Translations under genes and position numbers: made by a program | Notes under the pieces: model-generated | What the model was told of the DNA's origin: nothing | Seen by the model: only the letters and a program-made list of their open reading frames with translations | The model's database searches: none | From: Felixounavirus AN17P8 | DNA: 64,000 bases | Direction: 5' to 3' (one strand) | Sequence record: OZ035742.1 | Shown: positions 19,307 to 23,552 of the stretch, one piece after another | Layout of the letters: each line of letters opens with the position of its first letter | How positions within the stretch are numbered: position 1 is the first letter of the stretch

Positions 19307-20473
19307 ATGGCAGTAGGTGAAATTCAAATTAGTGCCTTGCCTCAAGCAGCCTTACCAATTGACCTTAGTGATATCCTCCATCTTAAGCAGGGTATTGAGG
19401 ATAAGAGATGCACTCTTGAGCAATTACTTGCTCCACACTCAAGCCTAAGAAATAACCCTCACGGTGTTACTAAAACACAAATTGGTTTAGATAACGTTAT
19501 CAATGCTCTTCAGTTAGTTGCTGCAAATAACTTATCAGATGTTACTAATGTCACTGAGGCAAGGGCAAATCTACAGATTATGTCTTCAGAAGAGGTTAAT
19601 AATCTTATTCAACAACATATTGATGATAAGAGCAACCCGCACAACACCACTAAGGCACAGGTTGGTTTGAGCAATGTCCAGAACTGGGTGACATCTAACC
19701 TTTATAATGAGGATGCAGATAAGTACGCTACAGCAAGAGCAGTAAATAACTTGTACAAGGCTGTTCAGGCTTCTTATCCAGTAGGTACTATCCATCTCTC
19801 TATGAATCCTGCAAACCCTTCTACATATTTAATTTGTGGAGGTACTTGGGAGTTAGTTTCAAAAGGAAGAGCACTTGTAGGTTATGATAGTGCTTCTAGG
19901 CCAGTTGGTAGTAACTTTGGCTCAAGTAGTGTTAGCTTATCTAGTAACAACCTACCATCACATAGCCATTCAATCTACCTAACTGGTGGTGGACATACTC
20001 ATGGTGCTGCTATTACTATCGATGGCTTTGATTACGGCAATAAGAGCACAAACAGCTTCGATTATGGAACAAAGACCACTAATAGTACTGGTGCTCACAC
20101 TCACTCAGTGAGCGGTTCAACAAATACCACAGGTAATCACACACATACTGTAGGTGGTCGTTACGGGGGTGACTCTATTGGTGGTAAACAACGTGTTCAG
20201 GTCTCAGGGACTGCTCAGGTTTCCAGTGTAGCCGGTGACCACTCACACACTGTTAGCGGTTCAACAAATACCACAGGTAATCACACACATACTGTTGCAA
20301 TTGGTGCTCACACACACACTGTTGCAATTGGTGCTCATACCCATAAAGGCACAGTAACTTTGCAGTCATCTGAGCATACTCACTCAGGTACTACAGGTAC
20401 TACAGGTGCTGGTCAAGCATTTAGCGTTGAACAACCATCCTTTGTGGTTTATGTATGGCAAAGAACCGCTTAA
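19307..20473 (+). CDS. tail fibre protein (short) with His-x-His repeat C-terminal domain
   Basis: 388 aa; C-terminus carries repeated (S/T)GxHTHxV and HSH motifs and ends ...VYVWQRTA, closely matching the C-terminus of the next gene. Confidence 0.7.
   Translation: MAVGEIQISALPQAALPIDLSDILHLKQGIEDKRCTLEQLLAPHSSLRNNPHGVTKTQIGLDNVINALQLVAANNLSDVTNVTEARANLQIMSSEEVNNLIQQHIDDKSNPHNTTKAQVGLSNVQNWVTSNLYNEDADKYATARAVNNLYKAVQASYPVGTIHLSMNPANPSTYLICGGTWELVSKGRALVGYDSASRPVGSNFGSSSVSLSSNNLPSHSHSIYLTGGGHTHGAAITIDGFDYGNKSTNSFDYGTKTTNSTGAHTHSVSGSTNTTGNHTHTVGGRYGGDSIGGKQRVQVSGTAQVSSVAGDHSHTVSGSTNTTGNHTHTVAIGAHTHTVAIGAHTHKGTVTLQSSEHTHSGTTGTTGAGQAFSVEQPSFVVYVWQRTA
20111..20295 (+). repeat. coding direct repeats within tail fibre gene
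   Basis: 41-nt exact direct repeat agcggttcaacaaataccacaggtaatcacacacatactgt at 20111-20151 and 20255-20295; tandem 27-nt unit at 20291-20344. Confidence 0.8.
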
Positions 20474-20522
20474 AAATTCTTTTACAGGGGGCTGTACAGC
20501 CCTCTTTCTAGAGGACAAAATA

Positions 20523-22871
20523 ATGGCAGATTATAAGTTGAGTGAATTAAACTCAATCGATACAATCCGTTCAGATGACCTTCTTCATGTCAGGGTTAAA
20601 AAGAGACCTGAAATGCTGGGTGATGAAGACCGTCGAATGACCTATCAAGATTTCTTAGCATCTTTTAAGCTTGAAAGATTTGTTCAGATTGCTGGTAGTA
20701 CTATGACTGGTGACTTAGGGATTGTTAAGTTACTTTATGGTGGTAAGGCAGTCTTTGACCCTACAGGCTCTTCTGAGATTACTATGGGGGATGTTTTAAA
20801 GACTTTTAAACTTAACGCAAATGGTCTTAAACTAACTATTGCAGATGCTTCGAGGTCAGCAACTGTTTATCACACTCTGAATAAACCAAGTCCTAATGAA
20901 CTTGGGATGAGAACTAATGAAGAGAATGATGCAAGATATGCAAAACTGGCTAACTCGAATACGTTTAAAGCCAGGCAAACTATTACATCGAATGGTGAGA
21001 TTTTAACGCTAGTCACCCCTGCGGAGGCGAGTTCAGCGTACTGTGCCCTTGTAGGTAGAGACGCGAGTAATGAAAAGAATTGGGCTATTGGGAACCTAAT
21101 TAGAGGCAGCTTTGATGTTCAAATCGAGAGTAGACAAGGTTCCATCCTCACTCTAGGTACAACTGTAACGATTAATAAGACCCTTGCTGTTGTTGGTCAG
21201 GTCAAACCTTCTGACTTCTCTAACTTAGATGCAAGATACTTTACTCAGACGGCAGCTAATCAGAGGTTTGCACAGTTAGCTGGTAATAACACATTTAGTG
21301 GTTCTAATACTTTCACTAATTTTGTTATTAAGAAGAATGCTAATGCTATTACTATTCAAAATGTAGATACAACTACGGCTTTGTATATCCAAGCAAGGAA
21401 ATCAGATGGAACTAATAAGTGGTACATTGGTAATGACGGTGATGAGAACATTGTAAACATCTATAACTATTTAGCAAAAACACAAATCTCACTAGGTAAC
21501 ACCATTACCATGAGTAAAACAGTCCAAATTGGTGGTCAAGTTCAACCTTCTGATTGGACTAACATTGACTCTAGATATATTCCGGCAGCAACATTAAGTA
21601 CGATTGCAAGAACTAATGCACAAAATACTTTTAATGGTGCGCAAACAGTTGTTAGTGATGGCGAAGGTTTAGTTATTAAAAACTCTACTCAGAATAGGCC
21701 ATTGTATATTCGTGGTAAGGACGCTGCCAATGTATCAAGATGGTGGTTAGGTGTTGGTGACCCAAATTCTACTGATGTAGCCTTAAACAACAGCTTCTCT
21801 GGCACTCAGTTAATTTTAGGTAACTCATCTGCAAGTATCAATAAGACATTAACCCTAGCAGGGCAGATTCAACCCTCAGATTTCTCTAACTTAGATGCTA
21901 GATATTTTACCCAATCAGCAGCTAATCAGAGATTTATGTATGCAGGCTCTACAGGAACAGCTAGTGAAGTAGGGGATAGCAAAGGGGTTGCTTGGAATGC
22001 TAAAACTGGTCTATATAATGTTATGAGGTCTAATGGAGGCTCAACACTACTTGTTTTTCAAATGTATCAAGGTTCAAGCTCTACTCCTTCTGCTCAATTG
22101 AGATTCGACTACCGGAATGGAGGATTTTGGTATAGGTCATCAAGGGACAGTTTTGGTTTTGAAGAGGACTTCACACAAATTTATACAGAAAAGTATAAAC
22201 CAACTCCTTCAGCTATCGGTGCATACACTAAAGCAGAAACTGACCAGAAGATTGCACAGGCAGTAAGTGACTCTACAGACCTTAACAAAATCTACCCTGT
22301 TGGTATTGTGACTTGGTTTAACAGTAACGTTAACCCTAATACCGCACTTCCTGGATTAACTTGGACGTACCTGAACAATGGTGTTGGTAGAACTATCAGG
22401 ATTGCAGCAGCGAATGGTTCAGATGTTGCTACAACTGGAGGTTCAGATTCTGTTACATTAGCAGTTGGAAACTTGCCTTCACACACTCATAGTTTCTCTG
22501 CGACAACCTCTAGCTTTGACTACGGTACTAAGACCACTAATACAACTGGTGCTCACACCCACTCAGTGAGTGGTTCTACTAACAACACCGGTGCTCATAC
22601 ACATACAGTTGGTGGTCGTTATGGTGGTGACTCTATCGGTGGTAAACAACGTGTTCAGGTATCTGGTACAGAACAGGTATCTAGCTCTGCTGGTGCTCAC
22701 GCTCACACTGTATCTGGTACTGCTGCCTCTAACGGAAACCATGCTCACACTGTTGGTATTGGTGCTCACAGTCATACAGTTAGTGGTAACACTGGTGGTA
22801 CAGGTTCTGGTTCAGCATTTAGTGTAATTAACCAGTTCTATAAGCTGATGGCTTGGGTAAGAACTGCTTAA
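20523..22871 (+). CDS. tail fibre protein (long) with His-x-His repeat C-terminal domain
   Basis: about 782 aa from ATG at 20523 (MADYKL..., preferred over the 20406 start that overlaps the upstream gene); three internal repeats around Q(V/I)(K/Q)PSD(F/W)(S/T)N(L/I)D(A/S)RY; C-terminal HxH domain homologous to 19307-20473. Confidence 0.7.
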   Translation: MADYKLSELNSIDTIRSDDLLHVRVKKRPEMLGDEDRRMTYQDFLASFKLERFVQIAGSTMTGDLGIVKLLYGGKAVFDPTGSSEITMGDVLKTFKLNANGLKLTIADASRSATVYHTLNKPSPNELGMRTNEENDARYAKLANSNTFKARQTITSNGEILTLVTPAEASSAYCALVGRDASNEKNWAIGNLIRGSFDVQIESRQGSILTLGTTVTINKTLAVVGQVKPSDFSNLDARYFTQTAANQRFAQLAGNNTFSGSNTFTNFVIKKNANAITIQNVDTTTALYIQARKSDGTNKWYIGNDGDENIVNIYNYLAKTQISLGNTITMSKTVQIGGQVQPSDWTNIDSRYIPAATLSTIARTNAQNTFNGAQTVVSDGEGLVIKNSTQNRPLYIRGKDAANVSRWWLGVGDPNSTDVALNNSFSGTQLILGNSSASINKTLTLAGQIQPSDFSNLDARYFTQSAANQRFMYAGSTGTASEVGDSKGVAWNAKTGLYNVMRSNGGSTLLVFQMYQGSSSTPSAQLRFDYRNGGFWYRSSRDSFGFEEDFTQIYTEKYKPTPSAIGAYTKAETDQKIAQAVSDSTDLNKIYPVGIVTWFNSNVNPNTALPGLTWTYLNNGVGRTIRIAAANGSDVATTGGSDSVTLAVGNLPSHTHSFSATTSSFDYGTKTTNTTGAHTHSVSGSTNNTGAHTHTVGGRYGGDSIGGKQRVQVSGTEQVSSSAGAHAHTVSGTAASNGNHAHTVGIGAHSHTVSGNTGGTGSGSAFSVINQFYKLMAWVRTA

Positions 22872-22950: not shown

Positions 22951-23145
22951 ATGCCTACAATCCTAGCAATTCTTCTAAAAAATCTAGGTAGCTTCTTCTG
23001 GAAACTCATTTTATCCCTTCTGAGTGAATACATGATTGAGAAAGTGTTCTTTAAGCTTGCAAGATACCTTGCGAGTAAAACAGACACACCTATTGATGAT
23101 GAGTTCGTAGATAACTTAGAAAAAGCTTTTAAGGGGGAGAAATAA
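22951..23145 (+). CDS. small membrane protein (holin/antiholin candidate)
   Basis: 64 aa, single hydrophobic helix, charged C-terminus; RBS gaggtg. Confidence 0.3.
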   Translation: MPTILAILLKNLGSFFWKLILSLLSEYMIEKVFFKLARYLASKTDTPIDDEFVDNLEKAFKGEK

Positions 23146-23517
23146 ATGAAGTGGCTAGAGGAAGCTTTTAAAAATAATATTGGTGCAATTGTTGTTGGTA
23201 TTTTTAGTGTTATTGGGATGTATACCACGATGCAAGTTTCAAGTGGTAAGCAAGAAGTGTCTGTCACAACAAAATTACAGCAGCTAGATAATTATAGTAA
23301 ATCTAATTACTCAGCTATTCGTGATTTGCAGTCTGACATGAGATTGATTCAGCTAGGGATGGAGAACCAGAAAGTTCAGTTAGAGAATGTTAAGGGTGAA
23401 AACGCAAAACTTACCAAAACTCTTGATAAATTCTCTGACAGTGTAAATAATCTGGCTCAATCAGTATCAGCCTTGCAAGCTATTACTGAAAAGAACACAA
23501 AGAATACTGAAAAATAA
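23146..23517 (+). CDS. membrane-anchored coiled-coil protein (holin-like candidate)
   Basis: 123 aa; N-terminal TM helix IGAIVVGIFSVIGMY followed by coiled-coil; sits after tail fibres as holin t does in T4-like genomes. Confidence 0.3.
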   Translation: MKWLEEAFKNNIGAIVVGIFSVIGMYTTMQVSSGKQEVSVTTKLQQLDNYSKSNYSAIRDLQSDMRLIQLGMENQKVQLENVKGENAKLTKTLDKFSDSVNNLAQSVSALQAITEKNTKNTEK

Positions 23518-23519
23518 AA

Positions 23520-23552
23520 TTTTAAGGCTCCTTTTTACGGGAGCCTTTTTTG
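23520..23552. terminator. bidirectional rho-independent terminator
   Basis: hairpin aggctcc-tttttacg-ggagcct flanked by A-run upstream and T-run downstream, between convergent gene blocks. Confidence 0.65.

Follow-up and report, generated by a model that had tools for sequence, protein, structure and literature searches.

Two adjacent tail fibers with paralogous, gp37-type tips

The window analyzed here, the whole 64,000-nucleotide stretch of Felixounavirus AN17P8 (OZ035742.1), encodes two adjacent tail fibers with paralogous tips of the T4 gp37 type, each comprising a collar, a needle and a head, and the head cassette of such tips is exchanged via conserved motifs. We estimate the probability of this overall reading at about 88%. 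The initial annotation had proposed that a short tail fiber (STF) and a long tail fiber (LTF) end in a similar domain rich in His-x-His (HxH) units. Both open reading frames and their C-termini are as it quoted, and the module is shared, with 56% identity over 185 aa in a BLASTP alignment that contains a 21-aa indel (E = 1e-51), so that the C-terminal regions are clearly related when aligned. That both fibers of Felix O1-type phages carry gp37-like tips has already been published, and the feature itself adds nothing new: the C-termini of gp76 and gp77 were found to resemble T4 gp37 in the 2010 Felix O1 genome paper (PMC3185647), and a 2025 cryo-EM study of the congeneric phage Bas63 (JohannRWettstein) described a collar, a six-stranded HxH needle and a head on each of its STF and LTF (PMC12609058). 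In both Felix O1 and Bas63, the two fibers end in collar, HxH needle and head, as they do here.

The window belongs to a Felixounavirus, one of the Felix O1-like myoviruses that infect Salmonella, and its DNA matches 243 phage records, the top ones being Salmonella Felixounaviruses at 89 to 94% identity. At the fiber locus, both the DNA (84 to 94% identical) and the map of open reading frames match the annotated loci of Felix O1, NBSal004, VSe102 and other relatives, and Felix O1 resembles this phage in genus, in gene order and in the lengths of its STF (388 aa) and LTF (782 aa). The layout consists of baseplate wedge genes, a 100-aa open reading frame, the two adjacent fiber genes and then convergent thyA/frd. 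Two upstream open reading frames of 489 and 285 aa equal the Bas63 wedge proteins in length (PMC12609058), and the 100-aa open reading frame upstream of the fibers is likely the counterpart of the Bas63 LTF platform. The two open reading frames downstream of the fibers (22951-23145 and 23146-23517) have matches only to PHROGs without an assigned function, and no gp38- or gp57A-like chaperone was recognized in either. Promoter and terminator predictions between 18900 and 23700 were not in excess over shuffled sequence, apart from one bidirectional terminator at 23524-23547.

Domain organization of the two fibers

All features described below lie on the + strand. The STF gene (19307-20473; 388 aa) matches the tail fiber family phrog_2097 (E = 2.6e-138) and is orthologous to gp76 of Felix O1, with the position and length of the annotated tail fiber in relatives; judged from gene order, it is the counterpart of Bas63 gp26. 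Its collar domain (19775-19954; aa 157-216, YPVGTIHL...SSNNL) was identified by Pfam PF21939 (Gp10_C; E = 7.4e-17) and aligns both with the collar of T4 gp37 and with the C-terminal domain of gp10. From the alignment to the T4 tip structure 2XGF, the HxH positions and the translation, we delimited an ascending needle strand (19955-20152; aa 217-282) with four HxH motifs (aa 219, 230, 264 and 278) and two FDYG units, and a descending strand (20228-20383; aa 308-359) with five (aa 312, 326, 335, 344 and 357). Between the strands lies the head, a putative receptor-contact loop placed by alignment to the T4 gp37 head (20153-20227; aa 283-307, GGRYGGDSIGGKQRVQVSGTAQVSS). The collar is completed by a C-terminal return segment (20384-20470; aa 360-388, ...AFSVEQPSFVVYVWQRTA), which matches the end of the PF21939 profile and whose motif ...AFSV..P..V.Y.W.RTA is kept in all orthologs. 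Profile positions 3 to 139 map onto STF aa 154-387, and the needle thus interrupts the collar profile as an insertion.

The LTF gene (20523-22871; 782 aa) matches the tail fiber family phrog_4277 with 1,373 bits and is orthologous to gp77 of Felix O1; again judged from gene order, it corresponds to Bas63 gp27. It starts at the ATG at 20523, 50 nt past the STF stop codon and preceded by AGAGGA; a GTG start at 20406 was rejected, as it lies inside the STF gene and is used in none of the annotated relatives. The three internal repeats of about 100 aa reported at first are present in the shaft at 20940-21254, 21270-21578 and 21588-21920 (aa 140-244, 250-352 and 356-466). They measure 103 to 111 aa, are pairwise 34 to 46% identical in a self-alignment and are matched in three stretches by PF20744 (gp37_trimer; E = 2.1e-64); at the DNA level, a shaft repeat reaches 75% identity over 110 nt. 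The shaft is followed by a domain resembling phage Mu tail fiber protein S (21924-22253; PF12604 gp37_C, E = 5.9e-29; PDB 8JU3, E = 1.3e-22) and by a collar (22293-22475; YPVGIVTW...AVGNL) recognized from its BLASTP alignment to the STF collar, which scores 25.4 bits against PF21939, slightly below the 27-bit cutoff. The needle and head occupy 22476-22787, as defined by 2XGF, the HxH positions and the translation. The LTF head (GGRYGGDSIGGKQRVQVSGTEQVSS; 22611-22685) sits between three ascending (aa 654, 678 and 692) and three descending (aa 726, 740 and 749) HxH motifs. PF03335 (Phage_fiber, a 14-aa tail fiber repeat) exceeds its gathering cutoff of 20 in both proteins, with 24.5 bits for the STF and 40.1 bits for the LTF.

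Homology to the T4 gp37 tip

The T4 comparison in the initial annotation invoked both gp37 and gp12. The first of these is homology: in phmmer searches of the PDB, STF aa 146-359 aligned with residues 18-227 of 2XGF (E = 1.7e-25) and LTF aa 653-760 with residues 105-216 (E = 1.6e-13). All seven T4 HxH motifs align with an STF HxH motif, and five of the six in the LTF fall inside the aligned stretch, the sixth (SHTHS) lying directly upstream. The gp12 comparison is mere analogy, as no gp12 chain appeared at E ≤ 1 in PDB sequence searches with either fiber. The T4 gp12 tip is trimeric and lipopolysaccharide binding, with a collar-type domain and a histidine-coordinated metal. According to the Bas63 authors, the Felixounavirus STF is unlike the T4 STF (PMC12609058).

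The homologous elements comprise the collar, the ascending and descending HxH strands, a small head and the C-terminal return strand. In T4, however, this tip ends a 1,026-aa distal half-fiber whose folding needs gp38 and gp57A, whereas here it ends single-protein fibers of 388 and 782 aa without an adjacent recognized chaperone gene. The head residues also differ, and compared with gp37 the STF has two more HxH motifs and the LTF one fewer. Seven iron atoms are arranged along the T4 needle, and the essential residues include H929, H931 and the glycines of the tip, G942 and G943 among them (PMC6957217). Counting head residues from H929/H931 as numbered in that paper, the GG of the STF head that aligns with G942/G943 is conserved. 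Seven HxH motifs were reported for the Bas63 STF (PMC12609058), whereas we counted nine in this phage; given this difference, the two collar-proximal STF motifs may not be metal sites.

By analogy with the T4 crystal structure and the Bas63 cryo-EM structure, each fiber would form a trimeric needle. Each chain would leave the collar as an HxH-bearing beta-strand, form a 25-residue head loop and return as a second HxH strand that completes the collar, and the three hairpins of the trimer would together make a six-stranded needle. Each HxH motif, contributed by three chains, is predicted to bind one metal ion (iron in T4), for up to nine metal sites in the STF and six in the LTF, and the head of both tips would contact the lipopolysaccharide (LPS) receptor. 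The conserved DNA of the HxH, FDYGTK and GIGAH units serves as homology arms for exchange of the head cassette, both between the two fiber genes and between phages.

Repeats and exchangeable cassettes

As originally noted, the STF gene contains a perfect 41-nt direct repeat, which is exact at 20111-20151 and 20255-20295 and encodes the same 14-aa unit, SGSTNTTGNHTHTV, once on the ascending and once on the descending strand. The estimated chance expectation of such a repeat in 3.6 kb is about 1e-18, and the corresponding pair of 42-nt units is identical at 41/42 positions here, compared with 28 to 40 of 42 in 17 relatives. A tandem 27-nt repeat was likewise found at 20281-20337 (2.1 copies, 96% matches); it encodes HTHTVAIGA twice, within three HxH motifs at 9-aa spacing. 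Because this 9-aa-spaced triplet also occurs in T4 gp37 and in all orthologs, the arrangement is ancestral, and we rejected a recent duplication as its source; lineage specificity is confined to the near-identity of the DNA copies.

The exchangeable tip cassette extends from FDYGTK to IGAH over 85 codons, at 20057-20311 in the STF gene and, as its paralog, at 22515-22769 in the LTF gene. Its limits are those of a block of 95% identity between T4 and VpaE1: the VpaE1 LTF cassette is 95.4% identical in DNA to T4 gene 37, identity being 90 to 100% from FDYGTK to GIGAH and about 40% beyond, with the junctions exactly at these motifs. The VpaE1 paper described its own fiber proteins and T4 gp37 as "only distantly related."

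The domain exchange suggested in the initial annotation is borne out in relatives, both by this cassette in common with T4 and by gene-conversion tracts between STF and LTF. In 4 of 16 Salmonella relatives (UAB_Phi87, PMBT20, Seyj1-1 and BPS17L1), tracts of 113 to 189 nt are 100% identical between the STF and LTF heads of the same genome. Each of the four pairs shares private variants, and the flanks remain gene specific. The tracts fall within the region equivalent to the STF cassette, and in every converted genome they end directly behind the first HxH motif of the descending strand. In the literature searched, we found no paper describing STF/LTF gene conversion or cassette sharing between T4 and VpaE1.

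Alternative explanations for the His-rich module and its repeats

The resemblance to gp37 could in principle be one of low-complexity composition, the His-rich module being some other metal-binding or enzymatic domain. Its composition is indeed biased toward H, T, G and S, and structure prediction gave a poor model: the AlphaFold2 monomer of the STF, built from a 56-sequence alignment, had a mean pLDDT of 58 and a pTM of 0.27; it placed strands at aa 222-271 and 315-362, was confident for the collar only (pLDDT 74 to 88) and left the head disordered (below 50). A Foldseek search of the PDB with this low-confidence model returned nothing below E 0.1, the top match being the T4 gp10 C-terminal domain. 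The 2XGF alignment, however, spans 210 residues and includes the nonrepetitive collar and C-terminal strand, the Bas63 cryo-EM density shows a needle (PMC12609058), and the genes lie within the baseplate-fiber block. Together, the alignment and the cryo-EM density effectively refute a domain other than a needle, to which we assign a negligible probability. Another alternative is that the nucleotide similarity between the two fiber genes reflects recent gene conversion or duplication in this genome. Such an event would fit the 81% DNA identity over 200 nt between 20054-20253 and 22512-22711, the exact 23-nt match at 20180/22638 and the fresh tracts in relatives. (The identity of about 80% first given for 20088-20230 holds, at 81.1%, but its partner is 22546-22688, at an offset of 2458, and not 22550-22690; neighboring offsets give only 17 to 35%.) The two cassettes are 75.7% identical in nucleotides and 83.5% in amino acids, and dN between them is 0.07, but pS is 0.59, as in the diverged collar (0.61). 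The 23-nt run, the longest that is shared, is expected by chance (P about 0.1 to 0.9), and the head copies group with their orthologs (Sl26 and VSe102, and for the STF also NBSal004), not with each other. Since the tip pS equals that of the collar and the run is not significant, the tips were not recently exchanged here. On the basis of the synonymous-site and run-length analyses, we rejected recent conversion in this window as very improbable, and the similarity of the paralogs in this genome reflects protein constraint, not fresh recombination.

A further proposal concerns the repeats, which the initial annotation regarded as plausible hotspots of copy-number change. Under this explanation, the HxH-coding repeats would undergo slippage or unequal crossover, and rapid changes in needle length would tune host range. 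The exact 41-nt and near-exact 27-nt repeats point in this direction, as does the variation among orthologs, which have 6 to 11 HxH motifs in the STF and 4, 6 or 7 in the LTF; in T4, moreover, host range expands by adhesin duplications (Tetart 1996, as cited in PMC3157838). This variation lies between clades, however. In all 16 complete fiber pairs examined from Salmonella-clade genomes, the needle segments are free of length differences and the counts are those of this phage, nine in the STF and six in the LTF, and therefore HxH number does not behave as a fast hotspot. In addition, the 9-aa-spaced triplet common to T4 must be ancient, a crossover between the 41-nt copies would remove 48 codons including the head, and the numbers of units on the two strands tend to covary (Spearman 0.60), which points to rare, coordinated changes. 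We therefore consider rapid slippage unlikely, if somewhat less so than recent conversion.

Cassette exchange and head diversity

For Salmonella Felix O1-type phages, it appears reasonably probable that recurrent ectopic conversion between STF and LTF heads maintains both fibers on a single LPS epitope, or resets them to it, and transfers host-range changes between the two, and that the FDYGTK-to-GIGAH cassette also crosses subfamilies. Adhesin shuffling in T-even phages (Tetart et al. 1996, 1998; Trojet et al. 2011, PMC3157838) similarly involves variable specificity segments between short conserved motifs, with junctions at the motifs. The partners there are orthologous loci of related phages, whereas here they are two paralogous fiber genes in one genome, as well as phages of the Ounavirinae and Tevenvirinae. 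The 85-codon cassettes represent the natural swap unit for retargeting Felix O1-type phages in Salmonella diagnostics or biocontrol; in relatives, the cassette has already been swapped in nature between the two fibers and with T4-like phages.

Host recognition by Felix O1 was described as "elusive" in the BASEL paper (PMC8594841). The head is the hypervariable position of the tip: across 59 ortholog clusters, about 50 different loops occur between conserved flanks. Felix O1 and this phage carry one head type on both fibers, whereas E. coli Felixounaviruses carry two different heads. DNA encoding the head type of this phage was found at 136 places in 77 phage records, so most of these records carry it in both fibers, and 72 of the 77 are named as Salmonella phages. 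Judged from these records, the shared head type is characteristic of the Salmonella-infecting members of the genus and tracks Salmonella hosts almost perfectly.

Both tail fibers end in a T4 gp37-like tip

The window matched 243 phage records, headed by Salmonella Felixounaviruses at 89 to 94% DNA identity. Its ORFs run from two baseplate wedge proteins (489 and 285 aa) through a 100-aa ORF, a 388-aa fiber and a 782-aa fiber to two small ORFs, followed by genes for thymidylate synthase and dihydrofolate reductase in convergent orientation. Annotated Felix O1, NBSal004, VSe102, Mushroom and BPS15Q2, along with other loci, have the identical order, and the wedge proteins of phage Bas63 are of equal size (489 and 285 aa; PMC12609058). 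The interval singled out in the initial annotation (19307-22871) therefore spans the short tail fiber gene (STF; 19307-20473) and the long tail fiber gene (LTF; 20523-22871). The LTF start was placed at ATG 20523, which has AGAGGA just before it and agrees with annotated relatives. A GTG at 20406, given in a mechanical ORF list, was rejected, as it sits inside the STF gene and annotated relatives use the ATG.

The initial annotation had described a similar HxH-rich C-terminal domain in both fibers, encoded by DNA about 80% identical, and both points were confirmed. BLASTP aligned the C-terminal parts of the two proteins across 185 aa (56% identity; E = 1e-51; a single 21-aa indel), and at the DNA level a 200-nt stretch (20054-20253 versus 22512-22711) shows 81% identity. 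The interval originally proposed gave 81.1% identity at an offset of 2458, compared to 17 to 35% at neighboring offsets. The repeats reported there were likewise recovered: an exact 41-nt direct repeat in STF (starting at 20111 and 20255), a 27-nt tandem repeat in STF (20281-20337; 2.1 copies, 96% matches) and three internal LTF repeats (aa 140-244, 250-352 and 356-466; 34 to 46% mutual identity), which Pfam PF20744 covers in three stretches.

The suggested likeness to T4 gp37 was borne out by a PDB sequence search, in which STF aa 146-359 (E = 1.7e-25) and LTF aa 653-760 (E = 1.6e-13) aligned to the same chain of 2XGF, the crystal-structure sequence of the gp37 receptor-binding tip. The STF alignment takes in the whole tip, from the nonrepetitive collar up the ascending strand, across the head and down the descending strand into the beginning of the return segment. 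Each of the seven gp37 HxH motifs aligns with an HxH motif of STF, which has two additional collar-proximal ones, one per strand (aa 219 and aa 357); LTF has six in total. In both fibers, Pfam detected a Gp10_C collar profile interrupted where the needle is inserted (the LTF collar hit falls just below the Pfam cutoff), together with a 14-aa Phage_fiber repeat. At the level of sequence homology, then, both fibers carry a gp37-type tip. The T4 needle holds seven iron atoms along its length, and the essential residues of the tip include H929, H931 and several in the head, among them G942 and G943 (PMC6957217); counting from H929/H931, the glycine pair aligned to G942/G943 is kept in both heads of the window.

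STF was modeled as a monomer only, from a 56-sequence alignment (mean pLDDT, 58; pTM, 0.27). The model was confident in the collar and unreliable in the head, with strands predicted at aa 222-271 and aa 315-362. A Foldseek search with this low-confidence model returned no significant match, with T4 gp10 C-terminal domain chains ranking top (E about 0.1). By analogy with T4, the tip would trimerize into a six-stranded needle in which HxH triplets may bind metal, at up to nine sites in STF and six in LTF, and the head would touch LPS. An identical head type on both fibers could give the two one common receptor.

The C termini of Felix O1 gp76 and gp77 have been described as resembling T4 gp37 (PMC3185647), and the Bas63 cryo-EM paper reported a collar, an HxH needle and a head on both Felixounavirus fibers and singled out the tips as varying most within the genus (PMC12609058). 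The tip feature itself is therefore already known, and only the exchange events in relatives, outside the window, may be new.

The head varies among relatives and tracks host

We compared 29 Felixounavirus loci (IMG/VR) and 12 annotated genomes. The head is variable between conserved flanks, with about 50 distinct loops in 59 ortholog clusters. The window's head DNA was located at 136 places in 77 phage records, of which 72 are named Salmonella phages; Felix O1 is among these records and has it in both fibers. In contrast, E. coli members of the genus have other head types, and their STF head is unlike their LTF head. The head is thus the variable part of the tip and tracks host.

The suggested change in repeat copy number was seen between clades: STF orthologs have 6 to 11 HxH motifs (mode, 9) and LTF orthologs 4, 6 or 7, whereas the Salmonella clade (16 complete fiber pairs) is constant at 9 and 6, respectively. 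Ascending FDYG and descending IGAHxH units tend to covary in number (Spearman 0.60 across 171 nonindependent sequences), with common classes of 1/1, 2/2 and 4/4 (STFs of loci L024, L026 and L029 compared with the window's STF), as expected if paired strands of a hairpin must stay in register.

The LTF ORFs of L002 (453 aa) and L006 (541 aa), taken as Si3 and EC6, are truncated, in agreement with the incomplete appearance of these LTFs noted in the Bas63 paper (PMC12609058); Si3 still codes for a tip cassette downstream. GU169904.1, named "Staphylococcus phage SA1," contains both Felix O1-type fiber genes (83003-86558; 90% identity) and is probably a mislabeled or mixed record.

The tip cassette is the unit of exchange

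The segment exchanged is an 85-codon cassette from FDYGTK to GIGAH (STF, 20057-20311; LTF, 22515-22769). Among 16 genomes with the window's head type in both fibers, the STF and LTF head DNA matches at 100% in four, with shared runs of 189 nt in BPS17L1, 141 nt in Seyj1-1, 115 nt in PMBT20 and 113 nt in UAB_Phi87 (chance probability, 4e-7 to 1e-21). Within each pair, the STF and LTF copies have private variants in common. The identical tracts all stop just past the first HxH motif of the descending strand, and the sequence downstream is gene specific (57 to 67% identity between paralogs versus ortholog medians of 76 to 97%). On clustering, STF and LTF copies were mixed in five head groups, while the flanks sorted by gene. 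This pattern is that of recurrent ectopic gene conversion between the two fiber genes in relatives. Homogenization during short-read assembly is an unlikely source of the identical tracts: the background divergence of 15 to 20% is high for such an artifact, and Felix O1 displays the same tendency, its two heads being 96.6% identical with a 51-nt run.

The cassette of the coliphage VpaE1 LTF (L008:7209-7472) and T4 gene 37 (L092:901-1163) share 95.4% DNA identity, which falls from 90 to 100% to about 40% exactly at FDYGTK and GIGAH. This indicates a recent transfer of the cassette between Tevenvirinae and Ounavirinae. VpaE1 was shown to depend on the truncated LPS core that E. coli B strains carry; the authors of that study stated that T4 gp37 likewise recognizes E. 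coli B LPS, yet rated the VpaE1 fiber proteins and gp37 as only distantly related (PMC4690856). The junctions fit the model of Tetart and Krisch, as cited in PMC3157838, of exchanges at conserved adhesin motifs.

Domain exchange, which the initial annotation had considered plausible, is accordingly seen in relatives but not in the window's own pair, where the DNA similarity of the tips is not a trace of recent recombination. Between the window's cassettes, dN is 0.07 (STF aa 250-313), while the synonymous difference (pS, 0.59) equals that of the strongly diverged collar (0.61), and the two heads differ at 1 of 25 residues; selection on the protein, rather than a recent event, therefore keeps the heads alike. 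No shared run exceeds 23 nt, a length at chance level for the observed identity, and on clustering of the head each copy falls with its orthologs from other phages. Within STF, the 41-nt repeat pairs ascending and descending 14-aa units that match at 41 of 42 nt, compared to 28 to 40 of 42 in 17 relatives, which points to lineage-specific homogenization inside this gene, shared with UAB_Phi87. Overall, the initial observation was confirmed and its interpretation supported.

Other features of the locus

Between the LTF shaft repeats and collar, a domain at 21924-22253 resembles phage Mu tail fiber protein S (PDB 8JU3, E = 1.3e-22; Pfam PF12604); LTF thus combines Mu-like with T4-like parts as a mosaic. 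In the N-terminal half of STF (19450-19700), a motif recurs as NPHGVTKTQIGLDNV and NPHNTTKAQVGLSNV and is also visible as a weak DNA repeat (19450/19525); it may correspond to the helix-and-turn shaft motif reported for Bas63. In the STF return segment, GTTGTTG is encoded by a perfect 9-nt tandem, CAGGTACTA (20385-20407; 2.6 copies). The small ORFs 3' of LTF (22951-23145 and 23146-23517) encode 64 and 123 aa and matched only PHROG families of unknown function; the 123-aa product has a hydrophobic N terminus and a repetitive polar tail, and some relatives annotate it as a holin. A bidirectional terminator hairpin (23524-23547) lies between them and the convergent thyA/frd genes, and the GC skew switches sign at about 24000.
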